Assembly: GCA_050173015.1 (NCBI GenBank)
Contig: JBFXLE010000032.1
Span: 1 to 36,308 of the forward strand
Source of the DNA: Calditrichaceae bacterium
GTDB lineage: Bacteria; Calditrichota; Calditrichia; Calditrichales; JBFXGD01
Direction of reading: 5' to 3'
DNA: 36,308 nt
Of the stretch, positions 4,621 to 27,934 are shown piece by piece; position 1 is the stretch's first letter; the number at the start of each line of letters is the position of its first letter. The translations under genes and the position numbers were made by a program. Below the pieces are notes generated by a model, which saw only the letters and a list, made by a program, of their open reading frames with translations, did no database searches and was not told the origin of the DNA.

Positions 4621-4649
4621 AAAAACGCATAATATACCATATAAAAATA

Positions 4650-4681
4650 CAAAACGGAGCAAAATTTTTTGCTCCGTTTTG
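4650..4681. terminator. Bidirectional terminator between cas2 and the convergent CRISPR array
   Basis: Perfect inverted repeat CAAAACGGAGCAAAA-TT-TTTTGCTCCGTTTTG. Confidence 0.8.
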
Positions 4682-4721
4682 CAATTAAATGTCTGTATAT
4701 TAAAAGTTTATACAAACATAT

Positions 4722-6405: not shown

Positions 6406-6445
6406 AACTTTTCGTAGGTTAGATTGCAAAATTAAAATAATTCTC

Positions 6446-6474
6446 TTGACATGCGGAAACGTATGCTTTATACT
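6446..6474 (+). promoter_or_regulatory. Sigma70 promoter of the 14-gene operon
   Basis: TTGACA (6446-6451), 17 nt, TATACT (6469-6474); TSS near 6481. Confidence 0.8.
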
Positions 6475-6482
6475 TAACTTCA

Positions 6483-6512
6483 GTTGTACGGACAACCACA
6501 CAACCGTACAAC
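6483..6512. promoter_or_regulatory. Putative GntR/HutC-type operator plus a second half-site
   Basis: Palindrome GTTGT-ACGG-ACAAC (6483-6496) directly after the TSS. CCGTACAAC (6504-6512) is the exact reverse complement of GTTGTACGG (6483-6491). Confidence 0.65.
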
Positions 6513-6534
6513 CGGAAATTATCTGGAGAATGAC

Positions 6535-7929
6535 ATGAAATTTAATCGAACGGGACTCGTATTAACTGCCATTTTTTTTCTCCCCGCTCTCTTGTTTTGC
6601 TCAAAACCCCCGCTTATTTCCGGGGATACCCTCACTATTGGATTGATTGGTGATCAGACCGGGTCATATGACCTTTCCGCGACTTATCAAATAATGGAAA
6701 AGGCGGTCGAACAGATGGATGCTAAAAATCCCGATCTCGTGCTGCATGTGGGTGATCTGGTTGAAAGCATCAGGGGAATCAACTCATTTGAAGATTATAA
6801 ATCGAATTTTGACCATGCGGTAAAAATACTAAACCGTCTGAACGCGCCCTGGTATCTCACCGCCGGTGATCATGATGTGGTACCTCCGGTTTATCAGGCC
6901 GGATCAGGCGACCGGTCAAGGGAAGAATGGTTCAAAAAACTGTGTTCAGCCGCCGGTTTACCCATAAAGAATCAATTATATTATAGTTTTGACTTCAATA
7001 ATTATCATTTTATCTCTCTTTACTCTCTTGAAAATTTGCATACTGATCCCAGATGGGGTCCCATTTTTTTGAATCAGTTGTCTGAGGAGCAAATCGCATG
7101 GCTGAGAAATGATCTGGAAGCGCGAAAGAGCGCGCGGGGGATCATAGTCCTTGTGCATCAGCCTCACTGGTATGTCTGGTCGAACTGGTCGGAAATTCAT
7201 GAAATACTCAGGCAATATCCAGTCGCGGCAGTCATTGCCGGACATTTTCATTATGACCAGGATGACGGCCTGATCGATCAGATAAGATACCTGGTGATGG
7301 GCGCTACCGGAGGTGTCGTTAAAAATATGGATCCCAATTCCGGCGGCTCATCTCAATTCGCTACCCTTAAGCTGTATAAGAACAAGGTCACTGATATAAA
7401 ATTATTTGATCTTTCATCGGGAGAATCCCTCGAGCTGACGCCGCGCAAGACCATGGACCGTCTGCAGGCGCTCTCCTGTATGCTAGATAATGTTTTTATG
7501 GATGAAAATATTGGCCATAAGAGTGGACAGCTCTACTCCATTACGGACGAAAATCAACACAGTCCGTTAAAACAGATCGGGCTTGAATCACTCGCGAATC
7601 CGATCGATTTACCGATTCGAATTGAAATAAACGCGGATCGGGATATTCTTCAAAACGCGCGTTGGATCCGTTCAGGAAAGTCTCTGCCGGGTTCGTCTGT
7701 CATGGAATTGATGCCCGGTGAAAGAACCGGCTGGGCGAATTATACCAGTGTGGGGCAATGGGTAAAACCGGATCCTTTGTGGGTTTGCGATCTTACAGAT
7801 AATCCGGAAAGATTGAAGAATTTGACCAGTATCGCGGTAAAGATAAAAATATCATTTAGTGATCGGGGTGAGCGCTGGGTTGAATCAACCGCCCGCTTTC
7901 CCGTAAAAAAAATCGAAGATAATTTATGA
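6535..7929 (+). CDS. Calcineurin-like metallophosphoesterase, probable lipoprotein, with an unknown C-terminal domain
   Basis: ATG 6535 after GGAG. Signal MKFNRTGLVLTAIFFLPALLFC (lipobox-like Cys). Motifs IGDQ, HVGDLV, GDHD, VHQP, AGHFH. Confidence 0.85.
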   Translation: MKFNRTGLVLTAIFFLPALLFCSKPPLISGDTLTIGLIGDQTGSYDLSATYQIMEKAVEQMDAKNPDLVLHVGDLVESIRGINSFEDYKSNFDHAVKILNRLNAPWYLTAGDHDVVPPVYQAGSGDRSREEWFKKLCSAAGLPIKNQLYYSFDFNNYHFISLYSLENLHTDPRWGPIFLNQLSEEQIAWLRNDLEARKSARGIIVLVHQPHWYVWSNWSEIHEILRQYPVAAVIAGHFHYDQDDGLIDQIRYLVMGATGGVVKNMDPNSGGSSQFATLKLYKNKVTDIKLFDLSSGESLELTPRKTMDRLQALSCMLDNVFMDENIGHKSGQLYSITDENQHSPLKQIGLESLANPIDLPIRIEINADRDILQNARWIRSGKSLPGSSVMELMPGERTGWANYTSVGQWVKPDPLWVCDLTDNPERLKNLTSIAVKIKISFSDRGERWVESTARFPVKKIEDNL

Positions 7930-7959
7930 CCGGGTTTTAATTTATTCAGGATAGGTTCA

Positions 7960-8736
7960 ATGGTAACACATGTAACGGAAATTGAAAAATCAAGCGTAGT
8001 ACCGATTTATCATCAGTTGTATTCCATTCTTCTCGACTTAATACATAGTGAAGTTTATAAGCCTTATGACCGGCTTCCCTCGGAAAATGAACTTACCGCG
8101 CAGTATCAAATAAGCAGACAAACGGCTCAAAAGGCTTTAAATGCCCTTGTGGAACAGGGAATTGCCCACAGAGTACAGGGGAAAGGCACTTTTGTAAGCG
8201 ACAAGACAATCACTTACAGCATCACTGCCTCTTTGAGTTATTCCACGGAAATAATCGGATTAAATAAAGTTCCCCGAAGCGAGTTAATTCACGCAAAAGA
8301 AATAGAAACTTCGGGTCTTATCTCAAGGAACCTCGCGCTGGATGAAGGTGCTTCCGTTTACAGCGTGCAGAGGGTCCGATATGTGGATGATATTCCGATG
8401 ACGTTGCAAACTTCATATCTGCCAAAATATCTTGTACCCGGACTGATCGATAAAAAATTTGAAGAAGGGTCATTGTTTAAAACAATCCGCAAAGAATATC
8501 AGCTTGAAATCGGCCATGCCACGGAGTACCTGAAATCAGTAAAATGTGATCAATATGAAGCAAAGCTGCTCGGTATTAAAGAAGGAGACGCCGTTCTGCT
8601 CCTTGAGAGAATTACGCGATTAAAAGACGGCAGAATTCTTGAATTTGTGCGCTCCGTTCTGCGGGGCGATAAAAGTAAAATATCAATAGATCTGGCAACA
8701 TACGAAAACGGGGAGAGGAAAACTATTGGAAGATAA
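7960..8736 (+). CDS. GntR-family (HutC/UTRA) transcriptional regulator
   Basis: PIYHQL...RLPSENEL...ISRQTAQKAL...QGKGTFV wHTH, with a C-terminal UTRA domain (RVRYVDDIP, SLF, LERIT, EFVRSVLRGD). Confidence 0.95.
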   Translation: MVTHVTEIEKSSVVPIYHQLYSILLDLIHSEVYKPYDRLPSENELTAQYQISRQTAQKALNALVEQGIAHRVQGKGTFVSDKTITYSITASLSYSTEIIGLNKVPRSELIHAKEIETSGLISRNLALDEGASVYSVQRVRYVDDIPMTLQTSYLPKYLVPGLIDKKFEEGSLFKTIRKEYQLEIGHATEYLKSVKCDQYEAKLLGIKEGDAVLLLERITRLKDGRILEFVRSVLRGDKSKISIDLATYENGERKTIGR

Positions 8737-9247
8737 AAGCACGCATTTTAATAAGGGTACGGACAAAAAAGAATATTTTACCCCGAAAAGGATCGCCCGC
8801 ATTTCTATCCTGATTGCCATCAGCGCGGTCGGTTCCTTAATAAAGATTCCAAGTCCGACTGGAACCGTTGCTCTTGACGCGTGTACCGGGTATTTCTCGG
8901 CGGTGACATTCGGCTGGATTGAAGGATCGCTCGTTGCCGGGCTCGGGCATATGTTGTCTGCTTTTACAACCGGTTTCCCCCTTGGTCTTCCCGTGCATCT
9001 CTATATTGCTTTTCAGATGGCCATTTGGGTTTCGGTGTTTTGGTTTATCGCGCGTAAAATCAATCTTATCCTGGCTATTATTACGGCCATAATATTAAAC
9101 GGAGTAGTTTCATCCTGGTTAATAATTCCATTTGGCGGTATGGGGATGGCGACCGCACTATTAATACCGCTAATTGTGGGCTCGACGGTGAATATTATTA
9201 TCGCCGCCCTGGCTTACAGAATCGTCCAAAAGAGTAATTTTGTATGA
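8726..9247 (+). CDS. ECF transporter S component, CblT (alpha-ribazole transporter)-like
   Basis: Small hydrophobic protein with LIKIPSPTGTVALDACTGYF and GHMLSAFTTGFPL motifs. Adjacent to a CblS-like gene and ECF A/T genes. Confidence 0.75.
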   Translation: MEDKSTHFNKGTDKKEYFTPKRIARISILIAISAVGSLIKIPSPTGTVALDACTGYFSAVTFGWIEGSLVAGLGHMLSAFTTGFPLGLPVHLYIAFQMAIWVSVFWFIARKINLILAIITAIILNGVVSSWLIIPFGGMGMATALLIPLIVGSTVNIIIAALAYRIVQKSNFV

Positions 9248-10059
9248 AAACAGCATCATTTTCTGAACTGGATATGCTTTATTCCGGTCTTAAAAAGGGC
9301 ATGAAAAGTTTTAATCGAAGCCAGGTGAGAGATCTTACCAAAATTGGTCTGGGAAACGGCTATTCGCTCATAGTGGCGGTTGATTCGGACGGCGGGATCG
9401 GATCGCGACCGGGAGATTTTGTTAAAATTGATGATTATCAGGTTGGAAGATTTTCCATGCGTGTCCCGCTTATAGAGATCCTGGCTTCAGGAGCGCTTCC
9501 GCTCGCCGCGTTTGATACTCTAACATTACCCATGGATGACCATGGACTGGAAATTATCCGGGGAATAAAAGATGAATTAACGGCCGCTGGACTCGGAAAG
9601 GATTTTCCTCTATCCGGAAGCACCGAAGACAATGTCCCGACAAAGGAAACGGGAATCGGCACCATGGTGCTTGGTATCGTTCATGACAGAGACTTTCGTC
9701 CCGGAAGCGGAGTCGCGGGTGATATAGTTTTTTGTATCGGAATGCCAAAATCGGCTCCCGCGGATAAGGTTAACATGGATGATGTTCAGATTGTGAAATT
9801 AAAAGATATACGGCAATTATTGGAAATGTCGGACATTCATGATATTCTCCCGGTGGGATCTCATGGCGCATTATATGAAGCCCGGGAATTGGCAGAATCT
9901 GCAGGGTTAAATTTTAAAGTGAAGGATAATTCGGGAATCGATCTTAAAAAATCCGGAGGTCCCGGCACCTGTGTCATTTTGTCTTGTAAGAAAATGATGG
10001 AAAAAACACTTAGAGAATTAACGGGCGCTCCTGTGACAAAAATCGGATGGCTGGAATAA
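9244..10059 (+). CDS. PurM/AIR-synthase-like fold kinase, CblS (alpha-ribazole kinase)-like
   Basis: VRDLT...IVAVDSDGGIG..PGD.VK, LSGSTEDN, TGIG, PVGSHGALYEA, DLKKSGGPGTC. Confidence 0.75.
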   Translation: MKTASFSELDMLYSGLKKGMKSFNRSQVRDLTKIGLGNGYSLIVAVDSDGGIGSRPGDFVKIDDYQVGRFSMRVPLIEILASGALPLAAFDTLTLPMDDHGLEIIRGIKDELTAAGLGKDFPLSGSTEDNVPTKETGIGTMVLGIVHDRDFRPGSGVAGDIVFCIGMPKSAPADKVNMDDVQIVKLKDIRQLLEMSDIHDILPVGSHGALYEARELAESAGLNFKVKDNSGIDLKKSGGPGTCVILSCKKMMEKTLRELTGAPVTKIGWLE

Positions 10060-10114
10060 GAACGGTGTTTGATGTTCATTTAATCGCGATGAAATTTGAA
10101 ATTAAGGAAATGCA

Positions 10115-11845
10115 TTGAATTTAATCTTTAAAAATGTCAATTACCAATACCCAAAAGGTAAGACGCTTTCACTAAAGGACATCAATTTAACTGCCACCGG
10201 TGATCGCGTGATCGCGGTGATGGGGCGTACCGGAGCCGGAAAAACCACATTGTTAAGCGCGATGAACGGCATCATACCTCAGTTTCACGATGGCAATTTT
10301 GACGGAGAAGTTCGGTTGAACGGCGACACGACTTCGGATCTGCCTATCCAGCAGCTGGTCCGTAAGGTGGGGCTTGTTTTACAGGACCCTGAAACGCAGA
10401 TATTTGGATTAACCGTCGAAAGGGATATTGCGTTTGGCCCGAGTAATCTGAATTTTCCAAAGGAAAAAATTAATGAAAATGTACTAATGTCCGCGAAAGC
10501 CGTTAATCTGGAATCATTGATGGAAAGATCTCCTGATCAACTATCGGGCGGCGAAAAACAAAGGCTCGCCATAGCCGGCATACTTGCTTTTGAGCCACCT
10601 GTCCTTGTTCTGGATGAACCTACTTCAGAACTGGACCCGGAGGGCGCGGATACAGTAAACAGATCTTTAATAAATCTGAAAAACGATGGACACCGGCTGA
10701 TTATTTTAAGCACTCATAATCCCGATAATGTTATAGATACCGCCGATGAATTATGGGTCATGGACAGCGGTGAGATTAAATATAAAGGAAATCCCGGGAA
10801 ATTTTTTAGTCATATAGACTTGCCGGGCATTTACGGATTACAGATTCCGGAAGTGACAGATCTGTTCAGAAAACTACATTATCTCCATTGGTATAAGGAG
10901 AATGAACTGCCGGTGACTCTTGAATCGGCGGTCTCGGAGTTTGAAAACATCCTGCAAAAAGTTGACAATATTGGGGTCAAGATCGGGAAGTATCTTCAGA
11001 CAAGGGCTGCTGAATCGCAGAATAAGATCATTGAAATAAACGGATTAAGTCATCATTACAGCAACGGACAGCTTGCGGTGGACAACGTGTCGCTTACGAT
11101 TAATTCGCAGCAGATGGTCGCAATCCTCGGCAAGAACGGCGCGGGCAAGACCACACTGGTCAAACATCTGATCGGGTTGTTAAGGCCTACTCAGGGAAGC
11201 GTGTTGATTAAAGGACGGGATATTGCGGATCTCAGAATCGAAGAGATTAGTCGTGATGTGGGCTTTGTGTTTCAGAATCCCGATCATCAGATATTTTCAC
11301 CGTCTGTCTATGAAGAAATTGAATATGGTCTGATTAATCATGGCTTTGATAAAGACTCAGCTAAAGAAAAAATTAAGAATGCCCTGCAACTGACCGGACT
11401 GACCGGTAAGGAAGATCTGCATCCCTTCAGCCTAAGTAAGGGAGAGAGACAAAAAATCGCCATGGCTTCCGTATTGGCGGTGGAGCCGGAAATAATTGTG
11501 ATAGACGAGCCTACTACCGGTCTTGACTGGAGAGATTCCATAGCTCTCATGGAAGAGCTGCGCAAGCTGAAGGAAAAAGGGCATACGATCATCATGATTA
11601 CTCACAATTTGCGTCTGGCGGCTGATTACGCGGATAAGGTGATTCTGATGCAGAAGGGGAAACTGGTTTGTGAAGGAAAAACGAACACCATATTGAATGA
11701 CCTGGAATTACTGAAAAAGACCTCATTGAAGCCTTTACAAATCTCGCTGCTGGTCCACAGCATGAAAAAATATGGAATACCGCAGGATATTATCACCATA
11801 AGCGAATTAATTGAATATATGAAATTTTTGATGCGGGAAAATTAG
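10115..11845 (+). CDS. ECF transporter ATPase with two fused ABC domains
   Basis: Two Walker A motifs (GRTGAGKT, GKNGAGKT), Q-loops LQDPETQIF and FQNPDHQIF, LSGGE/LSKGE, LDEPT/IDEPT. TTG start. Confidence 0.95.
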   Translation: MNLIFKNVNYQYPKGKTLSLKDINLTATGDRVIAVMGRTGAGKTTLLSAMNGIIPQFHDGNFDGEVRLNGDTTSDLPIQQLVRKVGLVLQDPETQIFGLTVERDIAFGPSNLNFPKEKINENVLMSAKAVNLESLMERSPDQLSGGEKQRLAIAGILAFEPPVLVLDEPTSELDPEGADTVNRSLINLKNDGHRLIILSTHNPDNVIDTADELWVMDSGEIKYKGNPGKFFSHIDLPGIYGLQIPEVTDLFRKLHYLHWYKENELPVTLESAVSEFENILQKVDNIGVKIGKYLQTRAAESQNKIIEINGLSHHYSNGQLAVDNVSLTINSQQMVAILGKNGAGKTTLVKHLIGLLRPTQGSVLIKGRDIADLRIEEISRDVGFVFQNPDHQIFSPSVYEEIEYGLINHGFDKDSAKEKIKNALQLTGLTGKEDLHPFSLSKGERQKIAMASVLAVEPEIIVIDEPTTGLDWRDSIALMEELRKLKEKGHTIIMITHNLRLAADYADKVILMQKGKLVCEGKTNTILNDLELLKKTSLKPLQISLLVHSMKKYGIPQDIITISELIEYMKFLMREN

Positions 11846-12646
11846 ATGTTTTTAGAATATCAAAAGGGAAATTCTATTTTACACAGACTCGATATCAGGA
11901 CAAAGGGACTGGGGTTTATCGTTGTCGTCATTGCTGCTTTTTTATTCACAGCACCCGGGTATAATTTAATCATATTATTTCTGTGCCTGGCATTGATGAG
12001 ACAAATCCGTATGCCGGCGAGCAGGCTGATGATGATGCTTAAACCCCTGATCCCTATTCTGATTTTAATAATACTTTTCTCAGCGGTCTCCTATAGTCCC
12101 GAATTCTTCCAAAAACCCATGTCCCGGAAAGTCTTATTCTCAGCAGGATTTATGACCTGCACGGTCGGCGGTATTCTTCTGGGTATCTCTCTGAGCATCA
12201 GAATACTCACCATGGTGATTGCCTCGACGCTGCTGACTTATTCCACCCCGATTGATGACTTTATACACATACTCAGGATGATGCGGGTTTCCCATAAAAT
12301 TGCCTTTGTTGTCACAACAGGAATGAGATTTATACCGACCATGGACAAAAAATCACAGCAGATTATAGAAGCCCAAAGAACCAGAGGCGCGAATTTCCAT
12401 GAGGGCGGACTGGTTCGTAAAATTAAGGCTTACATTCCCGTAATGGTCCCGATGATTGTCGAATCGCTTCGCATGTCTGAAAATTTAGCCATGGCGATGC
12501 TAAACCGCGGATTCGGCGCGTCAAAAAACTGGACGATTATGGATGAACTGCATCCGGGTATAAAAGATGCCGTTATTACGATTGTTTTACTGATTGTCAT
12601 TACTATTTTGATTTATTTAAAAATTTTAGGATACGGAAAAATCTGA
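11846..12646 (+). CDS. ecfT: ECF transporter transmembrane T component
   Basis: SILHRLDIRTK, MRFIP, AQRTRG and AMLNRGF conserved Arg motifs. Confidence 0.93.
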   Translation: MFLEYQKGNSILHRLDIRTKGLGFIVVVIAAFLFTAPGYNLIILFLCLALMRQIRMPASRLMMMLKPLIPILILIILFSAVSYSPEFFQKPMSRKVLFSAGFMTCTVGGILLGISLSIRILTMVIASTLLTYSTPIDDFIHILRMMRVSHKIAFVVTTGMRFIPTMDKKSQQIIEAQRTRGANFHEGGLVRKIKAYIPVMVPMIVESLRMSENLAMAMLNRGFGASKNWTIMDELHPGIKDAVITIVLLIVITILIYLKILGYGKI

Positions 12647-12660
12647 AAAGGAAAAAAGTT

Positions 12661-13662
12661 ATGTCGGAATTGGAAGAAAGAATTTATGGCGCGTTAGTCG
12701 GAGTTGCTGCGGGCGATGCCATGGGCATGCCCTCATCAATGATGAGTCCGGAAATTATCAGATCAACTTTCAAATCGTACATCACCGATTTCCTGCCGGC
12801 GCCGAAAGGGCATGTTATACATAATAAGATGGTTGCGGGGCAGATAACCGATGATACACAGCAGACGCTTTCGCTGGCGGATTCAATTATTGAGAAGGGA
12901 TGTATAGATCCGCACGATGTTGCTAAAAAACTGATTGAATGGGCAGAATCAGTTGATGCCTTCGATTCGATGATCCTGGGGCCGAGCACGCTCCGAAGTC
13001 TCTACGCTATTAAAGCAGGCAGACCCATTGAGGAATCAGGGACGGCGGGGGATACAAACGGGGCGGCGATGAAAATAAGCCCGGCCGGAATTTTCGGAAT
13101 GGGCAATCGTGATAAAACGGTCGATGCGGTGGCGAAAGTTTGCATGGCTACTCACAACACCAATATTGCAATCGCGGGGGCGTCCGCTGTGGCGATGGCT
13201 GTCGGAAAAGGTATCACCGGTGAACAGGATATGAATACGATCATCGCCCATGCGTTTCAGGCGGTAGAGCTCGGCATGGGAAAAGGGAGAATTTGGTACG
13301 GGGCATCCATTATTGACCGCACCCGGTTAGCGCTTGAAATCGTCTCCGGAAATTCTGAGAAGTCCGAAAAACTGGAAACTCTTTACAAGGTCATAGGCGC
13401 GGGTGTCGCGATGACTGAAACGGTTCCCGTGTGTCTCGCCATCGCGAAACTCGCGGAAGGTAATCCGGTTGAAGCGATTCAGATGGCGACTAACTTAGGC
13501 GGAGACTGTGATACCATCGCTTCGATCACAGGCGGCATATGCGGCGCCATATCCGGTGTGAAGGCATTCCCTAACAAATGGATTGAAAAAATTGAAAAAG
13601 TTAACCATTTAAATTTGGAGGAATACGCTCACAAATTATATCAGGTCGTCAATAAAAATTAG
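12661..13662 (+). CDS. ADP-ribosylglycohydrolase (ARH/DraG/YegU family)
   Basis: GDAMGMP, GQITDDTQQT, TNGAAMK, GGDCDTIASITG metal-binding motifs. Confidence 0.93.
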   Translation: MSELEERIYGALVGVAAGDAMGMPSSMMSPEIIRSTFKSYITDFLPAPKGHVIHNKMVAGQITDDTQQTLSLADSIIEKGCIDPHDVAKKLIEWAESVDAFDSMILGPSTLRSLYAIKAGRPIEESGTAGDTNGAAMKISPAGIFGMGNRDKTVDAVAKVCMATHNTNIAIAGASAVAMAVGKGITGEQDMNTIIAHAFQAVELGMGKGRIWYGASIIDRTRLALEIVSGNSEKSEKLETLYKVIGAGVAMTETVPVCLAIAKLAEGNPVEAIQMATNLGGDCDTIASITGGICGAISGVKAFPNKWIEKIEKVNHLNLEEYAHKLYQVVNKN

Positions 13663-13680
13663 TCATCATGGAGAAATATT

Positions 13681-15570: not shown

Positions 15571-15577
15571 GATAATC

Positions 15578-17776
15578 ATGTATTCAAAAATGATTAAATA
15601 TTATGTTACAGTTTGCGCCCTTATTATTATTGTAAGTGATGATTTAAGCGCGCAGGCCGGCGGGAAAATCTACGGGTATATCCTGGACAGAAATACAGGA
15701 AAACCGATAGAACAGGCCTGCGTTGTGCTCGATCCGGATTCGATCGGAGCGGAAACTAATTCCGACGGTATTTATTTTATCCCGAAGATACCCTCGGGCC
15801 GGTATGAACTTCGCGTAGAGATGATCGGATACGAAACCATGTCAGAACATTCTGTCACGATTCAGCCGAATGAATCCAGAGAAATGAATTTCTTTCTCAA
15901 GCCGATCATTTTATCCGGCTCGGATGAGATTGTCGTCACCGCGACCCGCGGTAAATCCATGACCAATGAAGTTCCGGCATCGGTGGATGTCATAAGCATG
16001 GAAAAGATAGAACTTCTGGCGCCTCAGAATATGGCCGAAGTGCTCGAAAATGTGCAGGGCGTGTTTATCAAAGACTACGGCGGAATTGGCGGGAATAAGA
16101 CCATCTCCTTAAGGGGATCCAGTTCGGAACAGGTGCTGGTACTCCTGGACGGTCAGAGATTGAATGACGCGCAGAGCGGACAGGTGGATTTTAGCTCAAT
16201 TTCATTGGAAGGAGTCGAGAAAATTGAGGTTGTAAGGGGAGGTAATTCAGCGCTCTACGGAGCTGACGCGGTCGGTGGAGTCATCAACATCATTACGAAT
16301 AAAAAACATGACAGAGAAGGCGTATCCGGATCGTTAAAAATGATGAATGGTTCATTTCAATCGCTCTCCATAGAACCCGCGCTTAAAATCAGATATGATA
16401 AGTTCGGCGGATCGCTCAGCTATAAATATCTTAGCAGTGAAGGCGATTTTACTTATAAAAACCTTGAAGGCCGGGATGAGAAGCTGAAAAATAACGATAT
16501 TATTGCTCAGGATCTGTTCGCCCGTGTTTATTATCTGTTTGATGATTCGCTTTTTCAGAGAACGCTGAATTTTTCATACAAATATTATGACTCAGAAAGA
16601 GGCAGCCCCGGAAATATTGAACTTCCGTATCGGTCGGCGCGTCTCTGGAATACGAATCAGCAATTCAACACGACATTTTCCGGAAAAGTTTTTAATCTGA
16701 TGAATGACCTTCAGGTCCAGGCATACGCGCATACGGGTAATTCGAGATATAAAAATGATGAAGGCCTTGTTCCCATAGACAGCCGTTACGAAAACGGTAC
16801 GTACGGTCTCGAAACACAGATGCAGTCCATATTTACCGGCGGACAAATGCTCACCTACGGAGCGGGTTACCGAAACGACTGGCTGAACAGTGAAGAGTTT
16901 GCCGATGACCATACAAGGGATTCCTATTATATTTTTCTGCAAAATGAGACCGAGATTAAGATGAAAAACCATTATCCGGTAAAATCGCTTACCTTTGTGC
17001 CTGCAGCGCGTCTGGACGGATTTTCGGATTTTGGTTCTCATGTATCCCCGAAAATCGGCGGAGTGATCAACTTCGGACACTCTTGGCAGACATCTGTCAA
17101 ATGGAACGCGGGTCTTAGCTACCGGGCGCCTAATTTTAATGAATTGTACTGGCCGGAAGACGCCTGGACCAAGGGTAATCCTGATCTGAAAGCGGAACAC
17201 GGTTATGACTGGGATGCGGGGATCAGGCTTCGCTACCCGATACTAAACGGAATCGCCCTGGATGTAACCTACTTTGATGTGCGTATGAATGATCTGATAC
17301 TCTGGCAGTCCACCGGTCAGCTTTGGATGCCTTTAAATGTTGATAAATCGCGCAATCGGGGTATTGAAACAAGTATTTCGCTTTCTCCCGTCGCAAAAAG
17401 AATCATGCTCAACGCGAATTATACTTTTCTGGACGCGAGAAATCTGTCCGATGACCTGACGATAAAGGATAAATATCTGGTTTACCGGCCGAGGCACACT
17501 TTTAACACAGCGGTGACCATTAACTACCGGAATTTGACAGTGAAATATGATTTTCAGTATGTCGGTAAAAGATATGTTAATCCCGCCAATACAAAATTTA
17601 TGGAGGCATATAATAACTCGGACCTGACGGTGGCGTATGTTCATGATTTTGACAACTGGACATCCAATTTGTCGGTTCAGGTTAAAAATCTGCTTGATGA
17701 GCGATATGAAATTATTCAGTACCACCCGCTTCCCGGAAGGGAAATGCGGATAAATCTGGGCATTTCAATTAATTGA
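15578..17776 (+). CDS. TonB-dependent receptor, BtuB-like, with an N-terminal carboxypeptidase-regulatory-like extension
   Basis: GKIYGYILDRNTGKPI...IGY N-terminal domain, TonB-box region EIVVTATR, SLRGSSSEQVLVLLDG, EKIEVVRGGNSALYGADAVGGVIN, YRAPNFNELYW, NLLDERYE...PGR. Confidence 0.93.
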   Translation: MYSKMIKYYVTVCALIIIVSDDLSAQAGGKIYGYILDRNTGKPIEQACVVLDPDSIGAETNSDGIYFIPKIPSGRYELRVEMIGYETMSEHSVTIQPNESREMNFFLKPIILSGSDEIVVTATRGKSMTNEVPASVDVISMEKIELLAPQNMAEVLENVQGVFIKDYGGIGGNKTISLRGSSSEQVLVLLDGQRLNDAQSGQVDFSSISLEGVEKIEVVRGGNSALYGADAVGGVINIITNKKHDREGVSGSLKMMNGSFQSLSIEPALKIRYDKFGGSLSYKYLSSEGDFTYKNLEGRDEKLKNNDIIAQDLFARVYYLFDDSLFQRTLNFSYKYYDSERGSPGNIELPYRSARLWNTNQQFNTTFSGKVFNLMNDLQVQAYAHTGNSRYKNDEGLVPIDSRYENGTYGLETQMQSIFTGGQMLTYGAGYRNDWLNSEEFADDHTRDSYYIFLQNETEIKMKNHYPVKSLTFVPAARLDGFSDFGSHVSPKIGGVINFGHSWQTSVKWNAGLSYRAPNFNELYWPEDAWTKGNPDLKAEHGYDWDAGIRLRYPILNGIALDVTYFDVRMNDLILWQSTGQLWMPLNVDKSRNRGIETSISLSPVAKRIMLNANYTFLDARNLSDDLTIKDKYLVYRPRHTFNTAVTINYRNLTVKYDFQYVGKRYVNPANTKFMEAYNNSDLTVAYVHDFDNWTSNLSVQVKNLLDERYEIIQYHPLPGREMRINLGISIN

Positions 17777-17810
17777 TAATCTTTTAATCGTTTAATCGTG
17801 GGAGGGATTC

Positions 17811-18827
17811 ATGAAAAAGTTGTTTGTTTTAATGATTTCGATGTTTTTTGTCCTGGGGCTTTTCACAGGATGTGATGAAGACTCACCGACAAAATCAGAA
17901 GCGCCGCCAACGGCGACAGCGCTGTTTGTCCTGAATTCGTCGGCAACAAGTATATCAGTTGTTGATCTTGAGACAGGTACCGTTTATAACGATGCCGCAA
18001 CGGTTGGTACCTGGCCGAATCAGATCGTTTATAACGGTGGAAAATTATACTGTGTCAACTCCGGTTCGAACAATATTATGGTATTTAATCCGGATACATG
18101 GGCTATTGAAACAATCAGCCTCGGCCCCAATAATAATCCGATGAACATGGCTTTTTATGATGAAAATACCGCCTATGTCGCCTGCTCCGTATCAAATAAA
18201 GTCCTACAGGTGGATCTTACCGCCAAAACGGTGACCAAGACCATCGATGCCGGTGTCGGCGCGACAGGTATCGCTATTGCGGACGGTAAAGTTTATGTGG
18301 CAAATACCGCCTTTGACGGTTCCAACTATACCTATGGACAGGGTACGGTGACGGTTGTGGATGCCGCGACGGGAAATTTTATTAAAACTCTTAATGTGGC
18401 GACAAATCCGCAGGCAGTGGGCGTCACTTCGGACGGGATGATTAATGTCGTCTGTACCGGCGATTATTTCAGTCAGTTTGGGAAAATCGCCATTATCAAT
18501 CCGGCCACTAATACTGTCGTTGATTCTATCGATGTAGGAAATTCTCCGGGAAGTATTTCAATATCTCATTCAGATGATATGGCATATCTTGGTATTTGGG
18601 GCGCGGGAATACTCTCTTACAATACCGGTACAAAGGTCATAGAAAATGGTTCGGATAATCTACTGCTCGGAAAAGGCGGATCGGGTGTGGTTACCGATAC
18701 TGAAGGTAATATTTTTGTGTCCGTCTGGGAAGATGATCAGGTTGTTAAGATTGATAGCGACGGCAATGTTCTGGCAACATACAACGTCGGAGACAGCCCT
18801 CTGTCCTTAACAATTAAAGTTGAATAG
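17811..18827 (+). CDS. YncE/YVTN-type beta-propeller surface lipoprotein (BtuG-like context)
   Basis: Lipobox LFTGC followed by acidic DEDS, repeated blades (TVGTWP, KLYCVN, KVYVAN, VGNSP, VGDSP). Confidence 0.85.
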   Translation: MKKLFVLMISMFFVLGLFTGCDEDSPTKSEAPPTATALFVLNSSATSISVVDLETGTVYNDAATVGTWPNQIVYNGGKLYCVNSGSNNIMVFNPDTWAIETISLGPNNNPMNMAFYDENTAYVACSVSNKVLQVDLTAKTVTKTIDAGVGATGIAIADGKVYVANTAFDGSNYTYGQGTVTVVDAATGNFIKTLNVATNPQAVGVTSDGMINVVCTGDYFSQFGKIAIINPATNTVVDSIDVGNSPGSISISHSDDMAYLGIWGAGILSYNTGTKVIENGSDNLLLGKGGSGVVTDTEGNIFVSVWEDDQVVKIDSDGNVLATYNVGDSPLSLTIKVE

Positions 18828-18841
18828 CTGTAAATAATTAC

Positions 18842-18986
18842 GATTAATCCTGAGGCTGACCTTTGGTTCTTTTTTTGACGGGCGGATGATAACGGATCGG
18901 GACGGAAAACTCAAGGCGTAATCCGGCTAATGTATGTTCGTCAAAATCCGAAGGCAGAACCGGATGGTCGGCCTCATTTTTTAATC
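18842..18986 (+). other. Long (~145 nt) intergenic imperfect RNA hairpin with a U-tract
   Basis: Nested pairings GATTAA/TTAATC, TGAGGCTGACC/GGTCGGCCTCA, TTTGGTTCT/AGAACCGGA, TTTTGACGGGC/GTTCGTCAAAA, CGGAT/ATCCG. Confidence 0.7.
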
Positions 18987-18997
18987 TTAAGGAGTCT

Positions 18998-20017
18998 ATG
19001 ATGGAAAGGGAGAAAAGGTTCCATTCCCCGCGATACCTCATTCTGATTATTTTAGTTTTAGCAGCGTTTTCATGCCGGGAGACAGGACAGCAGCAGAGTA
19101 ACAGAATTATCTGTCTGACGCCAAATCATACGGAAATCGTTTATGCTTTAGGTTTACAGGATGATGTCGTGGGCTGGACGCAATATTGTAATTATCCGCC
19201 GGAAGTTCAGGACGTTCCCGGATGGGTCCGCTACGATAAATATGAATTTACAGGAATTGAAGATGAACTGAAGAAGAAAGTGGCGGTGGTCAGCAGTTTT
19301 GTTACAGTAAATTATACCCTGATTGATTCGTTAAAACCGACGCTGATACTGACTTCTCATCAGATGCAGAGAGGCATAGTTAAAAAGCTCAGGGATAAAG
19401 GCTATAATGTGATGCATTTTGAGCCGGTCACTCTGGATGATACTTTTGATATGATGCTGGAAATAGGAAAAGCGACCGGCAAAGCGGAAACGGCGGAAAA
19501 ACTTGTTAAGCAATACAAAAAAGAAATTGAAGTCATAAAAACCTCAACACAAAATCTTCCAAAAATTAAAGTGTATTTTGAGATTAATCATATGGGGCCC
19601 TATGTTCTCGGTTCAGGATCGCCAATGGACCAGATGATCGAAATTGCGGGTGGTGTCAATATTTTTGAAGATGTGGAAGGGGAGGCGTTCCACGCTGATC
19701 TAAAGGATATTATTGAGAGAGATCCCGATGTCATTTTAACCCCGCTATGGCCGGCCGCCGGCAGAGAAGAAGTAACAACAACCTATGAAATAGTGACACG
19801 TGAAGGCTTTTCCGATATTACCGCCGTTAAAAACAGCCGGATTTATCATTATGATTCCAGTCTGTTAAAACGCCCCGGACCGCGGAGTTTGCCGGCGATA
19901 AAGAAACTGGCCTATTTGCTTCATCCATACTATTTTAAAAATCCGGAAAATTCGGTTGATCCCTGGGAGCTGGGAAAAATTGATGAAAACTATCCTCCGC
20001 CAAGAGCCTTATATTAA
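18998..20017 (+). CDS. Helical-backbone (BtuF/TroA-like) substrate-binding lipoprotein
   Basis: Lipobox AFSC, RIICLTPNHTEIVYALG...VVG.T.YCNYP, IEIAGGVNIF, DPDVI, AVKNSRIY, RPGPR. Confidence 0.88.
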   Translation: MMEREKRFHSPRYLILIILVLAAFSCRETGQQQSNRIICLTPNHTEIVYALGLQDDVVGWTQYCNYPPEVQDVPGWVRYDKYEFTGIEDELKKKVAVVSSFVTVNYTLIDSLKPTLILTSHQMQRGIVKKLRDKGYNVMHFEPVTLDDTFDMMLEIGKATGKAETAEKLVKQYKKEIEVIKTSTQNLPKIKVYFEINHMGPYVLGSGSPMDQMIEIAGGVNIFEDVEGEAFHADLKDIIERDPDVILTPLWPAAGREEVTTTYEIVTREGFSDITAVKNSRIYHYDSSLLKRPGPRSLPAIKKLAYLLHPYYFKNPENSVDPWELGKIDENYPPPRALY

Positions 20018-20065
20018 GAGATAAAAGACTAACGGTAAGATGTAGTTCAAAAACGAGAGAGTTCT

Positions 20066-21295
20066 ATGCAGCAGGAATATGAAGTAGCAGATATAAAACT
20101 CGCGCCCCAGGGGCAGAAAAAAATTGACTGGGTGGCAAGGTCCATGAAAGTTCTGAACCGGCTTCATGATAAATTTGCCGGGGATGATGTATTCAAAGGT
20201 AAAAAAGTGGCTTTATGTATTCATCTCGAGGCAAAAACCGCTTATCTTGCTCAGGTAATCAAGAAACTGGGAGCCGATGTCTGGATCACCAGTAGTAACA
20301 CATTGTCAACAAAGGATGATGTGTGCGCGGCTCTCGCTCAAAGCGGTGTTCATGTGTACGCGAAGCACGGCGCTGATGAAAAAACATACCAGACATTTAT
20401 ACATTCAATTGTGTCAGGCAGGCCCAATGCCGTCGTGGATGATGGCGGGGATGTTTGCGAATTCCTGCATGCCCGGCCGGAGTTTGGCGCGGATTTAAAA
20501 GGTATTTGTGAAGAAACAACCACCGGTGTGAATCGTCTGAAACAGAAATTCCTGGATAATGCTCTTGAATATCCCGCTTTGGCCATTAATGACGCCAAAT
20601 CCAAGTTTCTTTTTGATAACAGATATGGAACCGGTCAGTCCACATGGACAGCAATTATGCACCTGACAAACATGACTATTACCGGAAAAACTGTGGTCTG
20701 CGTCGGTTACGGATGGGTAGGCCGGGGGGTCGCGATTCGCGCCGCGGGCCTTGGCGCCGAAGTGATCGTCACCGAAATCGATCCCTGGAAGGCGATGGAG
20801 GCGAGAATGGACGGATTTCGTGTCATGACCATTGACCAAGCGGCGCCTTTGGGAGATTTCTTTATTACTAATACCGGCGAAGTGGGAGTCATCCGCAATG
20901 AACATTTCCTTAAAATGAAGGACGGCGCTTTTCTTGCCAATGCCGGACATTTTGATTTTGAAATCGATGTCCCGGGGCTGACGCGTATATCAGGGGAGCC
21001 GGTGACCGTCCGGGATGAGATTGATGAATATACACTTGAAAATGGCAGAAGCTTGTTCTTGCTCGCCCGGGGCGGCATCATCAACATCGCCGGCGGATTA
21101 GGGCATCCCGTTGAAATTATGGATATGTCATTTTCGCTTCAGCTGGCCAGTATCCATTATTTATTGTCAACCGGTAAGCTGGAAAATAAAGTTTACAGGG
21201 TTCCTGATGTGATTGATGAAATGGTCGTACGTGAAAAACTAAATGTTGAAGGCATTTCCATTGATTCTCCGCAAGATAACGGAAAAAAACAATGA
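20066..21295 (+). CDS. ahcY: Adenosylhomocysteinase-family protein (archaeal/Thermotoga-type, HxExK motif)
   Basis: HLEAKT, DDGGD, EETTTG, NDAKSKFLFDNRYGTGQS, GYGWVGRG, NAGHFD, GHPVEIMDMSF. Confidence 0.9.
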   Translation: MQQEYEVADIKLAPQGQKKIDWVARSMKVLNRLHDKFAGDDVFKGKKVALCIHLEAKTAYLAQVIKKLGADVWITSSNTLSTKDDVCAALAQSGVHVYAKHGADEKTYQTFIHSIVSGRPNAVVDDGGDVCEFLHARPEFGADLKGICEETTTGVNRLKQKFLDNALEYPALAINDAKSKFLFDNRYGTGQSTWTAIMHLTNMTITGKTVVCVGYGWVGRGVAIRAAGLGAEVIVTEIDPWKAMEARMDGFRVMTIDQAAPLGDFFITNTGEVGVIRNEHFLKMKDGAFLANAGHFDFEIDVPGLTRISGEPVTVRDEIDEYTLENGRSLFLLARGGIINIAGGLGHPVEIMDMSFSLQLASIHYLLSTGKLENKVYRVPDVIDEMVVREKLNVEGISIDSPQDNGKKQ

Positions 21296-22587
21296 TAATA
21301 AATGTGATAGGATTCGCTGCACTGCTGGGTTTTGCGTGGTTGTTTTCTTCAAACAGAAAAGTAGTAAACTGGAGAGTGATTATTTGGGGACTTTCGCTTC
21401 AAATTCTTTTCGCTCTCATTATTTTTGTTGTACCCGCCGGCGCGGATTTCTTTCTTATGGTGAACAAGCTGGTCCTGGCGGTTCTTGACAGCGCCACCGC
21501 TGGCACCAGCTTTCTGTTTGGGCGTCTTGCCCTTTCACCCGGATCCACAAATGCCGCGGGGGAGAGTTCAGTGGGATTTATCCTCGCGCTCCAGGCCTTA
21601 CCGACGATCATTTTTTTCGCCGCGTTGGTTGCAGTGCTCTATTATTTAGGAATTATGAACAAATTCATACGCGCTTTTGCCTACATTTTCAGCCGGTTGA
21701 TGCGGATCAGCGGCGCCGAATCACTCAGCGCTTCAACCAACATTTTTGTCGGCGTGGAATCCGCTCTGGTCATTAAACCGTATTTAAAGAATATGACACG
21801 ATCGGAGCTTTGTACCATCTTAACGGTTGGAATGGCAACGATCGCTTCAAGTATGCTGGCCGTATATATTTTTATGCTAAAAGACCAATTTCCGACCATC
21901 GCCGGACATCTTGTTTCAGCTTCGATTATGAACGCGCCTTCCGCGATCGTCTTTTCAAAAATTCTGTGTCCGGAAACGGATACTCCGGAAACGTTGGGAC
22001 AGAACATTAAACCGGAATATCAGAAAGAAAACAATCTTTTTGAATCCATTATCAACGGCGCGAACTCCGGAGTCAAACTGGTTGTTGGAATATGCGCCTT
22101 ATTGCTGGCTTTTTTGGGCATCGTCGCTTTGGTTGATAAGCTCTTTGTGTTTTCCGGCGGTTTTGTAAATGAAATTTTTAATATTAATATGGACTGGACG
22201 TTAAAAGGTTTACTGGGTTATATTTTTTATCCCTTCACGATTCTGATTGGTATCCCGGTCAGTGAAGCCGGCGCGGTAGCGAAAATTATCGGTGAAAGGG
22301 TGATTGTAACCGAGGTCACCGCTTTTCAGGATCTGTCAAATCTGATCAGTTCGGGGTACCCGCTATCAGCCCGGTCGATCGTCATCACAACATATGCCCT
22401 TACCGGTTTTGCTCATGTCGCTTCAGTGGCGATATTTGTCGGCGGTATTTCGGCTCTGGTTCCGGAACGGGTAAAAGATCTTTCTGGGCTTGGATTCAGG
22501 GCGCTGCTTGGAGCCACGCTGGCCTGTTTACTCACCGCCTGTATCGCCGGTTTTTTCTATACGGATGTTTCCATATTGATGAGATGA
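21292..22587 (+). CDS. nupC: Concentrative nucleoside transporter (NupC/CNT family)
   Basis: VNWRVIIWGL.LQ, LPTIIFF, GAESLS...NIFVG, GMATIA, TEVTAF, TYALTGFAH. Confidence 0.93.
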   Translation: MIINVIGFAALLGFAWLFSSNRKVVNWRVIIWGLSLQILFALIIFVVPAGADFFLMVNKLVLAVLDSATAGTSFLFGRLALSPGSTNAAGESSVGFILALQALPTIIFFAALVAVLYYLGIMNKFIRAFAYIFSRLMRISGAESLSASTNIFVGVESALVIKPYLKNMTRSELCTILTVGMATIASSMLAVYIFMLKDQFPTIAGHLVSASIMNAPSAIVFSKILCPETDTPETLGQNIKPEYQKENNLFESIINGANSGVKLVVGICALLLAFLGIVALVDKLFVFSGGFVNEIFNINMDWTLKGLLGYIFYPFTILIGIPVSEAGAVAKIIGERVIVTEVTAFQDLSNLISSGYPLSARSIVITTYALTGFAHVASVAIFVGGISALVPERVKDLSGLGFRALLGATLACLLTACIAGFFYTDVSILMR

Positions 22588-22593
22588 CAGCGA

Positions 22594-23622
22594 ATGAATG
22601 AAAATCAAATTCACGAGATTATCAAAGATATGCCAAAGGTCGAATTGCACCTTCATCTTGAGGGCGCGTTCACCTTTGAGTTTTTATTATCTCTCATTGA
22701 AAAATATGGCGGAGACCCGTCTGTCAAAACGATTGATGATCTAAAAAATAAGTTTGTTTTTACTGATTTTGCTCATTTTATTGAATTATGGTACTGGAAA
22801 AACCGGTTTTTTAGGAGGCCGGTTGATTTTGAAGAATCAGCCTACCATACATTAAAAAATTTATCAGAGCAGAATGTAATATATTCTGAAGTGTTTTTTT
22901 CACCATGGGATTTCGCATCGGATAATTTGTCGGTTGAAGAAATCACTGAGGCCACCATCGCCGGGGTAAAAAAGGCTGAAGCCGATTTTCCGATTAAGTG
23001 CGGATTGATTGCGGATATCGTTCGTGATTACGGCTCGGAAAATGCGGTTGACAGGGTAAAACAAATGATTCCATTCCGGGATTCAGGCGTTATAGGGATT
23101 GGACTCGGCGGCAGTGAGCAGAAATATCCGCCACAGGCCTTTGCCGCCGCTTTTCAGTATGCAGGTAAACATGGTTTCCATCTGACCGCTCACGCCGGTG
23201 AAGCCGCGGGCCCTGAATCGGTTAGGTCTGCCATGGATGATCTGGCGGCAGAAAGGATCGGTCACGGGGTTCGCGCCATCGAAGATCCCGCACTTATTGA
23301 AGATTTAAAACAAAAAAGGATTCCGCTGGAAATCTGTGTAAACAGCAACCTGAAAACTAAGGTGTATCCTTCACCGACATCTCATCCTGTAAAGAAATTA
23401 TATGACCGGGGGTTGGTTGTCACCATCAATTCCGACGATCCGGCCATGTTTGGATGTACCATTACGGATGAGTTTCTCCTGCTTTATGATAAAATCGGAT
23501 TCCGTCTCCCATCCTTCAAAAAATTAACCGAAAACGCCATCCGTTCGTCCTTTCTTCCAAAAAGCACAAAATTATTATATTTAGAGAGAATACACGGTTA
23601 TTGGGAAAATAATTATAGATAG
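22594..23622 (+). CDS. add: Adenosine/adenine deaminase
   Basis: PKVELHLHLEG, HAGE, RIGHG, LEICVNSN, INSDDP. Confidence 0.92.
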   Translation: MNENQIHEIIKDMPKVELHLHLEGAFTFEFLLSLIEKYGGDPSVKTIDDLKNKFVFTDFAHFIELWYWKNRFFRRPVDFEESAYHTLKNLSEQNVIYSEVFFSPWDFASDNLSVEEITEATIAGVKKAEADFPIKCGLIADIVRDYGSENAVDRVKQMIPFRDSGVIGIGLGGSEQKYPPQAFAAAFQYAGKHGFHLTAHAGEAAGPESVRSAMDDLAAERIGHGVRAIEDPALIEDLKQKRIPLEICVNSNLKTKVYPSPTSHPVKKLYDRGLVVTINSDDPAMFGCTITDEFLLLYDKIGFRLPSFKKLTENAIRSSFLPKSTKLLYLERIHGYWENNYR

Positions 23623-23672
23623 GCTTCCCTTCCTGAATCTTGTAATTAAAATGTGAAAATAATATTTTGTTC

Positions 23673-23701
23673 TTGCAATTGGCCGGTTACAATAATATAA
23701 T
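23673..23701 (+). promoter_or_regulatory. Putative sigma70 promoter for the secreted protein
   Basis: TTGCAA, 17 nt, TATAAT. Confidence 0.55.
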
Positions 23702-23921
23702 TAGACGAAATCTGTTTAATTCCTGCCAGGGATGACTCCATTCCGACAAATAATCAATTTTAATATAACATAATGCGTATTGAAATGTGGTGCGGCAATG
23801 CGTAATTATAATTCTGACTCGGTTAGAAATGATTCAGAATTTCGTAACAAAAATCCTCCTATCCTACTCCCTGATTAATATAATAAATTACAATATATAT
23901 ATTCAGGAAAGGAGTTTTTTT

Positions 23922-26974: not shown

Positions 26975-27058
26975 GATAACACCTCCTTTGTTTTTTATAT
27001 ATAACGCTGACCTTGTAAAAAAAATTCATCGGATTATCTTATAAATAATCCCGGGAGT

Positions 27059-27874: not shown

Positions 27875-27934
27875 TCATAAATCCGTTTCAATTTTTTTTG
27901 GGCTAATTGTTCTATACAGATTTCAAACATCATG

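Follow-up and report, generated by a model that had tools for sequence, protein, structure and literature searches.

A probably GntR-regulated fourteen-gene operon of a Calditrichaceae bacterium, a candidate system for the scavenging of unusual cofactor-derived nucleosides

We describe an operon of fourteen genes located at positions 6446-23622 of a 36,308-nucleotide stretch of DNA (the window) from a Calditrichaceae bacterium (assembly GCA_050173015.1, contig JBFXLE010000032.1). The window is one contig of a 4.34 Mb genome, which is 97.5% complete. Judged from sequence comparison, the operon would be repressed by a GntR protein and would serve to scavenge and break down unusual nucleosides derived from cofactors, whose likeliest source would be cobamides or free fragments of their nucleotide loop; we assign to this reading a probability of about one half. 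Our confidence is moderate for the alpha-riboside core of the system and lower for cobamides as its source.

The proposed pathway would begin at the outer membrane, across which two BtuB-like receptors and a BtuG-like propeller would carry the compound, to be held in the periplasm by a BtuF-like lipoprotein. An exported phosphoesterase would then remove or cut a phosphate ester, leaving the free nucleoside. The resulting alpha-riboside would be imported by a CblT-like transporter of the energy-coupling factor (ECF) type, or by NupC where the ECF genes are missing, and converted by a CblS-like kinase into its 5'-phosphate, the alpha-glycosidic bond of which would be cleaved by an ADP-ribosylglycohydrolase (ARH) to give ribose 5-phosphate and the free base. 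In a second cytoplasmic branch, inosine and a thiol would be formed from adenosyl or inosyl thioethers, or from nucleosides of the adenosine type, by a deaminase together with a hydrolase of the S-inosyl-homocysteine (SIH) type.

An earlier interpretation of the window (below, the sequence-only reading) had seen one packed, co-oriented unit of fourteen genes, and all fourteen open reading frames (ORFs) were indeed found over this span on the plus strand, with the domains first ascribed to them (Pfam, NCBIfam; Table 1). The intergenic gaps range from -11 to +55 bases, with the single exception of one gap of 170 bases, and three of the products (the phosphoesterase, the propeller and the binding protein) carry the lipobox of a lipoprotein signal peptide. 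The best promoter-like site within positions 5800-24500 stands at the head of the unit, and the position from which the operon had first been described to start is its -35 box. Directly 3' of the -10 box an inverted repeat was detected, the putative operator, and since the ORF of the phosphoesterase as listed would begin within it, translation most likely starts at the ATG at 6535 rather than at the TTG at 6484.

The core of this operator, GTTGTAYGGACAAC or GTTGTACCAACAAC, occupies the corresponding place, just 3' of the -10 box, in related loci from Calditrichota, Fidelibacterota and Ignavibacteriota; these other loci share the shorter core motif only, and the 9-base inverted repeat does not recur in them in the exact form that it has in the window. 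In the whole 4.34 Mb genome the motif is unique at up to one mismatch, and a search for a wider regulon at this threshold revealed no second operator. The GntR/UTRA protein of the cluster therefore probably controls only this operon. It shows the pattern of a HutC-type repressor, i.e. a protein with a winged helix-turn-helix (wHTH) and a UTRA domain accompanied by a putative palindromic operator, GTTGTAYGGACAAC, at the promoter of its own operon. The operon is thus a single unit under one promoter and one putative operator.

Table 1. Genes and other features of the operon (positions in the window)
Feature	Position	Strand	Basis
Promoter-like site TTGACA-17-TATACT	6446..6474	+	sigma-70-like, 11/12 consensus positions
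Putative GntR operator	6483..6513	+	palindrome GTTGTACGGACAAC plus extra ACAAC/CCGTACAAC half-site
Lipoprotein metallophosphoesterase	6535..7929	+	PF00149 6.1e-15; lipobox LLFC; ORF listed from TTG 6484
GntR/HutC-type regulator, wHTH + UTRA	7960..8736	+	PF07702 3.6e-37; PF00392 5.4e-18
ECF S component, CblT-like	8726..9247	+	PF12822 2.5e-14
CblS-like PurM-fold small-molecule kinase	9244..10059	+	PF00586
Fused ECF A-A ATPase	10115..11845	+	TIGR04521, 473 bits, cut-off 330
ECF T component (CbiQ)	11846..12646	+	PF02361 1.4e-31
ARH-family (ADP-ribosylglycohydrolase) hydrolase	12661..13662	+	PF03747, 210.5 bits, positions 1-286 of 287
TonB-dependent receptor 1, BtuB-like	13681..15570	+	Plug + barrel; best NCBIfam TonB-B12, 146.6 bits
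TonB-dependent receptor 2, BtuB-like, N-terminal CarboxypepD_reg	15578..17776	+	Plug + barrel; best NCBIfam TonB-B12, 251.7 bits
Beta-propeller lipoprotein (YVTN/DUF5074), BtuG-like	17811..18827	+	PDB 8blw_B 4.7e-9
Long imperfect hairpin followed by a U-run	18828..18997	+	gap between propeller and binding protein; -56 kcal/mol, z-score -3.64
Peripla_BP_2 lipoprotein, BtuF/heme-binding class	18998..20017	+	PF01497 6.2e-34
AdoHcyase (S-adenosyl-homocysteine hydrolase), short archaeal/Thermotoga type, HxExK (HLEAK)	20066..21295	+	NF004005, 550.9 bits; PDB matches
NupC-family nucleoside transporter	21292..22587	+	PF07662 4.1e-64
Adenosine-deaminase-family deaminase	22594..23622	+	TIGR01430, 309.6 bits, cut-off 216.55

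The distribution of the system was examined by scanning one genome per species with an alignment of the kinase. This yielded 157 relatives, the best 80 loci of which were kept and compared with the fourteen proteins by tblastn (E <=1e-8, coverage >=50%); many of the loci are cut by contig ends, so that the resulting counts are lower bounds. An ARH gene is adjacent to the kinase gene in 65 of the 80 loci, which represent at least six phyla. The other members were detected less often: GntR in 55 loci, the ECF S component in 39, receptors 1 and 2 in 36 and 35, the binding protein in 27, the phosphoesterase in 23, the propeller and the AdoHcyase in 17 each, NupC in 12 and the deaminase in 10. Six of the 15 loci without ARH end soon after the kinase gene, and nine loci without an ARH neighbour were scanned for their context.

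The loci of Calditrichota have the same gene order as the window. In Fidelibacterota the order is phosphoesterase, GntR, kinase, ARH, two receptors, propeller, (in some loci) binding protein, hydrolase, NupC and deaminase, with no ECF genes, and in Ignavibacteriota it is binding protein, GntR, S component, kinase, A-A ATPase, T component and ARH, followed by an exported PHP-type metallohydrolase, two receptors, hydrolase, NupC and deaminase. Bacillota carry a six-gene core only (GntR, S component, kinase, A-A ATPase, T component, ARH), and in Acidobacteriota the kinase and ARH genes stand between those of a large receptor and a TPR protein on one side and an FG-GAP/ASPIC protein on the other. 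The order of 11-13 genes is kept across Fidelibacterota, Calditrichota and Ignavibacteriota, and its recurrence in several phyla places the arrangement far beyond chance. Conserved synteny across phyla of the Fibrobacterota-Chlorobiota-Bacteroidota (FCB) group, which the sequence-only reading had named as a check on itself, was in fact found in this group and beyond it. Within its own phylum the operon is an accessory trait of patchy occurrence, since the kinase was found in only 5 of the 86 species genomes of Calditrichota (4 of the 53 of good quality); the closest relative of the kinase (83% identity) comes from another member of the Calditrichaceae.

The S component and the kinase are encoded as a pair, with an overlap of 4 bases between the two genes. 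Compared with S components encoded behind cobalamin riboswitches, the S component shows 45-52% identity (over ~155-166 residues); with those from ARH-linked loci of Bacillus, the value is 62-65%. It belongs to an ECF S-component family and has its A and T partners in the same operon, as is expected of CblT; the T and S genes of the operon are the sole ones detected in the genome with these queries. The kinase is 39-42% identical to riboswitch-linked kinases. Its AlphaFold2 (AF2) model (mean pLDDT confidence score 92.8) is matched best by ThiL in Foldseek (E 1e-14), followed by other enzymes of the PurM superfamily. No named family of NCBIfam covers it, a phmmer search against PDB gave chance matches only, and a profile search gave weak matches to SelD and PurM (E 0.03-0.05). 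Neighbours in the ESM Atlas bear the names “Alpha-ribazole kinase” and “CblS” (score 0.97) and, for the S component, “putative Alpha-ribazole transporter” (score 0.95), names which serve as leads and not as tests.

In four of the nine scanned loci without ARH, a cobalamin riboswitch lies directly upstream of the S component and kinase pair, which is the arrangement expected of cblTS. We placed these kinases, together with that of the window, in a quick maximum-likelihood tree of 79 kinase sequences, to the exclusion of the characterised proteins of Listeria and Geobacillus. The four riboswitch-linked kinases and one CobT-adjacent kinase formed a clade of their own (Shimodaira-Hasegawa-like approximate likelihood ratio test, SH-aLRT, 95), while the window kinase fell into a 33-member clade (SH-aLRT 98), every locus of which contains ARH. 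The window kinase can thus be considered a member of the CblS family, probably with the same chemistry, yet of a distinct ARH-coupled lineage. The pair had earlier been called CblS/CblT-like; the family membership stood, in view of the identity to riboswitch-linked pairs, the Atlas names and the ThiL-like model, but a place of the kinase among the riboswitch-linked enzymes did not, and the sequence-only reading had itself named a kinase outside the CblS clade as a sign against it.

This position also bears on the possibility that the substrate is some other phosphorylated natural product, or a modified nucleoside containing an unusual riboside. Such a substrate would be in line with the separate kinase clade and with the different neighbours of the core in Acidobacteriota (the large receptor, the TPR protein and the FG-GAP/ASPIC protein), and it should be borne in mind that all of the substrate assignments rest on family resemblance. 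We nevertheless regard it as very unlikely, since no specific candidate fits the resemblances to CblT/CblS and to BtuB, BtuG and BtuF better.

Several further arrangements were seen among the relatives of the kinase. An archaeal homologue adjoins a CobT-like gene, and two homologues from Atribacterota (L072, L082) lie inside an operon for a PnrA/Bmp-type nucleoside transporter of the ATP-binding cassette (ABC) class, without an S component or ARH; both contexts speak for the CblS/CblT assignment. A split transketolase (N and C halves) was an unexpected neighbour, found 3' of the riboswitch, S component and kinase genes in two Bacillota loci (L077, L078). A search among longer proteins for a fusion of kinase and ARH gave one protein of 576 amino acids (P0123), which turned out to consist of two kinase domains in tandem, a result that says little for or against a joint function. 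Enzymes of the PurM superfamily are habitually dimeric, and such a duplicate fits this habit.

The signs of cobamide synthesis which would be expected of CblS are missing here. At the gathering thresholds of Rfam no RNA family, hence no cobalamin riboswitch, was found in the window, and none of the latter occurs in 14 ARH-linked loci, which contained tRNAs and one unrelated fluoride riboswitch only. The window kinase thus has neither cobalamin-riboswitch control nor a cobamide-biosynthesis context, and the receptors of the operon lack the upstream cobalamin riboswitch which would be expected of BtuB. Moreover, CobS, CbiB and CobU are absent from the whole genome (97.5% complete), and CobS is missing in three of five other host genomes tested, one Bacillus among them. 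As the genome has no CobS, CbiB or CobU, a role in breakdown fits better than one in cobamide synthesis; the sequence-only reading had noted the absence of the three genes from the window, and their absence genome-wide again favours breakdown or salvage.

The invariant partner of the window kinase clade is the ARH protein. Four motifs, GDAMG, TDDTQ, GDTNGAAM and GGDCDT, which we take to be the metal-binding Asp/Thr motifs of ARH, are conserved in all 60 aligned copies from the clusters, and the best match in PDB is MJ1187 (1.7e-30). The bonds cut by ARH enzymes are alpha-linked ribosyl bonds in derivatives of ADP-ribose. Such substrates, if truncated, would correspond to an alpha-riboside 5'-phosphate, and the most economical order of the two reactions would therefore be kinase first and hydrolase second. 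In the locus of Bacillus litorisediminis a second ARH-family gene lies ~5 kb 3' of the core (L054 18929-20104, minus strand), beside three unannotated genes.

The known specificity of ARH for ADP-ribosyl bonds, reflected in the name of its Pfam family and in the presence of DraG and ARH3 among its PDB neighbours, may alternatively point to a conjugate of the ADP-ribose type or derived from NAD. The exported phosphoesterase, the model of which resembles the nucleotide phosphodiesterase SMPDL3A, would then split a pyrophosphate; adenosine would be taken up by NupC and deaminated, which would account for the adenosine branch, and the alpha-linked ribosyl part would be phosphorylated and cut by ARH. 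This explanation, however, does not account for the resemblance of the S component and kinase to pairs under riboswitch control (40-50% identity), nor for the BtuB/BtuG/BtuF-like trio and the SIH-type hydrolase, and we consider it highly improbable.

The envelope proteins suggest a link to cobamides. The genome has a single cobalamin riboswitch, in the locus C6:65571-74415, and the genes behind it encode a receptor, a DUF5074/YncE propeller, a Peripla_BP_2 protein, a class II ribonucleotide reductase, a TSCPD protein and an ABC ATPase. The only paralogous set of the receptor, propeller and Peripla_BP_2 trio under riboswitch control is that of the operon (23-27% identity; 27% for the propellers), and on the TonB-B12 family the riboswitch-linked receptor scores 151.6 bits, i.e. 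below receptor 2 and about equal to receptor 1. These parallels, along with the match of the propeller to BtuG1, agree with the BtuB/BtuG/BtuF-like parts recognised earlier and make a corrinoid-type ligand plausible for the set. No permease gene adjoins that of the operon binding protein. The sole FecCD permease of the genome is an orphan (C6:41279-42202) located 24 kb upstream of the riboswitch locus, which the operon binding protein would have to share if it feeds an ABC importer.

The AF2 model of the phosphoesterase (pLDDT 79.8) has purple acid phosphatase, SMPDL3A, Rv0805 and GpdQ as neighbours in Foldseek, and its beta-rich C-terminal domain matches no known family. In Ignavibacteriota its place is taken by an exported PHP-type metallohydrolase of the CehA/McbA type, which carries a signal peptide (188 bits, cut-off 80). 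This replacement of one exported enzyme by another suggests that an extracytoplasmic ester-cleaving step is part of the pathway.

The last three genes encode the second branch. According to Koeppl et al. 2024 (PMC10978960), AdoHcyases with the HxExK fingerprint prefer S-inosyl-homocysteine and those with HxTxE(Q) prefer S-adenosyl-homocysteine (SAH). The sequence HLEAK is found in 24 of the 25 AdoHcyase copies from the clusters (the 25th has a mis-called N-terminus), whereas the other AdoHcyase of the genome (contig C8) carries HVTAE. The operon enzyme, which had been described as an SAH/SIH hydrolase, is accordingly narrowed down by its fingerprint to the SIH type, with a predicted preference for S-inosyl-homocysteine. 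Two Ignavibacteriota hosts likewise possess, besides the cluster AdoHcyase, a second copy at 44% identity, and the enzyme is absent from both Bacillus hosts examined. The product of the last gene scores as an adenosine, i.e. nucleoside, deaminase, which does not bear out the earlier supposition, a guess, that the released base is deaminated. Taken together, the hydrolase, NupC and deaminase look like a deaminate-then-hydrolyse route for adenosyl thioethers.

It might be supposed that the FCB versions mainly scavenge thionucleosides of the S-adenosyl-homocysteine type, as a source of reduced sulfur and purine, and that a side product is dealt with by the kinase and ARH. The contrast between the HxExK cluster copies and the HxTxE housekeeping copy, the constant flanking of the hydrolase gene by NupC and deaminase, and the agreement with the deaminate-then-hydrolyse route of archaea (PMC10978960) speak for this view. 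The chance that it holds is nonetheless slender: the invariant core across the phyla is the kinase and ARH and not the hydrolase, the Bacillus hosts have no such hydrolase, and BtuB-like receptors and a binding protein of the chelate class would be odd for SAH. In a more ambitious form of the cobamide reading, the operon would constitute the first pathway for the complete dismantling of adenosyl-cobamides. Once the cobamide had been captured by the BtuB/BtuG/BtuF-like proteins and its nucleotide loop cut by the exported phosphoesterase, the nucleosides of both axial positions would be recovered, that of the lower side (the alpha-riboside) through the kinase and ARH and the adenosyl group of the upper side, as a thioether, through the deaminase and SIH-type hydrolase; we hold this to be improbable.

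For ARH, AdoHcyase, NupC and the deaminase, the genome also encodes one divergent paralogue each outside the operon (29-45% identity overall; 40% for the NupC of contig C1 and 30% for the deaminase of contig C13), and the operon copies may for this reason be regarded as dedicated. This observation is relevant to the view that the operon is a co-regulated mosaic without a common substrate, composed of three modules: a further route of corrinoid uptake, in which the receptors, propeller and binding protein feed the single BtuC-like permease, a core for the salvage of alpha-ribosides, and a trio for the salvage of purine nucleosides and SAH. Each of these modules would be meaningful on its own, Bacillota have the core without the rest, some Fidelibacterota loci do without the binding protein, and the orphan FecCD permease could serve both binding proteins. 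A mosaic nonetheless appears unlikely, given the gene order shared by three phyla, the single promoter with an operator unique in the genome, and the fact that the cluster copies are extra paralogues and not housekeeping genes.

Returning to the scavenging of cobamide-derived nucleosides, which we favour, a number of observations weigh against it. Cobamides are trace compounds, whose yield would hardly seem to repay an inducible breakdown system of fourteen genes. Within a cobamide there is no evident substrate for the SIH-type hydrolase; this enzyme is the main unexplained point and lay outside the scheme of the sequence-only reading. The position of the kinase outside the riboswitch-linked clade of the quick tree means that its substrate may differ from alpha-ribazole. 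Both receptors (251.7 and 146.6 bits) score below the BtuB equivalog cut-off of 599.7, although this cut-off is uninformative in the present lineage, as the riboswitch-linked receptor fails it too. The top PDB match of the propeller is a generic YVTN protein, ranked above 8blw_B, and the binding protein scores almost identically as BtuF (72 bits) and IsdE (71 bits), its PDB matches including B12-binding, heme-binding and other chelate-binding proteins. The fold of the phosphoesterase cannot tell a monoesterase from a diesterase. Finally, neither the receptor trio nor the hydrolase or deaminase is present in the versions of Bacillota and Acidobacteriota, so that the link to cobamides is drawn from the FCB versions only.

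The operon shares single elements with several known systems. Salvage of alpha-ribazole by CblT and CblS has been described for Listeria and Geobacillus (PMC6461909 and PMC6167548); there, as in the window, the gene for an ECF S component adjoins that for a small AIRS/PurM-fold kinase. The present operon differs in having a GntR repressor instead of a B12 riboswitch, in the separate clade of its kinase, in hosts which often have no CobS, and in the constant association of the pair, throughout the window clade, with an ARH hydrolase. The product is thus probably destroyed and not built into a cobamide. Capture of cobamides by BtuB-BtuG(-BtuF) is known from Bacteroides, 8BLW being the BtuB1G1 complex (PMC10404256 and PMC6143338). 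As there, a TonB-dependent receptor, a surface propeller lipoprotein and a Peripla_BP_2 protein are encoded in a row; here, however, two receptors stand in tandem, no riboswitch and no adjoining BtuCD are present, and the identity to the riboswitch-controlled trio of the genome is low (23-27%).

The cleavage of the nucleotide loop, which we propose for the exported phosphoesterase, has its counterpart in CbiR, which likewise cuts the loop of cobamides. The same cut is made in cobamide remodelling by CbiZ (PMC6461909). Both enzymes are of folds unrelated to the phosphoesterase, act in the cytoplasm and serve the re-attachment of a new lower ligand, whereas the genome studied here has no re-attachment genes. 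A regulatory likeness is found in the yegTUV operon of E. coli, where a HutC-type GntR regulator presumably controls, as here, a nucleoside-type transporter, an ARH-family protein and a kinase. The kinase and transporter of yegTUV belong to other families (PfkB and NHS), its substrate is uncharacterised, and outer-membrane parts are lacking. The regulator has been named YegW or GgaR (PMC10819704). With the archaeal/Thermotoga route from SAH through SIH to inosine (Koeppl et al. 2024, PMC10978960) the operon shares an HxExK-type hydrolase combined with a deaminase, but the latter is of the adenosine-deaminase family and not of the DadD type, and the hydrolase is an extra operon copy beside a housekeeping HxTxE enzyme.

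Although it is built from known families, the operon appears to be undescribed as far as the literature was searched; outside the primary CblS papers, this search gave no paper which links ARH with alpha-ribazole or describes the breakdown of cobamides or their lower ligands. We are not aware of any account of what becomes of cobamides and of their alpha-linked lower-ligand nucleosides once these have been released into the environment, nor of a breakdown route described for them. Alpha-ribazole has been reported as a marine exometabolite (PMC4989321, PMC8281238, bioRxiv 10.1101/2024.12.03.626653). The operon is a concrete and testable candidate for the breakdown of cobamides or alpha-ribosides. 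If the proposed pathway is correct, it would extend the ARH family by a new reaction, in which the 5'-phosphate of an alpha-riboside is hydrolysed, it would give the CblT/CblS family a second role, in breakdown, and it would provide a bacterial context for SIH-type hydrolases. In addition, an annotation as CblS should not by itself be taken to indicate salvage of lower ligands for cobamide synthesis. Since the operon was found in the named isolates Bacillus litorisediminis FJAT-47801 and Bacillus sp. Bva_UNVM-123, and also in a genome ascribed to Melioribacter roseus, it is within reach of ordinary genetics and enzymology.

Some minor features of the clusters and of the surroundings of the operon were also recorded. 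The hairpin which fills the widest intergenic gap (18828-18997) is not conserved in related loci and might act as an attenuator within the operon or stabilise the RNA. Four clusters of the Fidelibacterota type (L011, L033, L043, L053) are closed by a gene for a protein of ~305 amino acids with ~7-10 predicted membrane spans and no family match, which may be an extra permease; a further ORF of the last of these loci (u442) was dismissed as a wrong-frame artefact over NupC. Downstream of the operon, an 883-amino-acid protein with a type IX secretion system (T9SS) tail (23787-26438) was not accepted as an operon member, as its gene has a promoter-like site of its own and is missing from related clusters. 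The minus strand at 26525-28312 encodes two glyoxalase-fold proteins and a LigB-type dioxygenase, which are not conserved with the operon. Directly upstream lies a type II CRISPR-Cas system (window positions 427-6404) with Cas9 (995 amino acids), Cas1, Cas2 and an array at ~4722-6404 of about 25 repeats of 36 nucleotides separated by spacers of ~30 nucleotides; the ORF at 6034-6417 sits within this array and is spurious.

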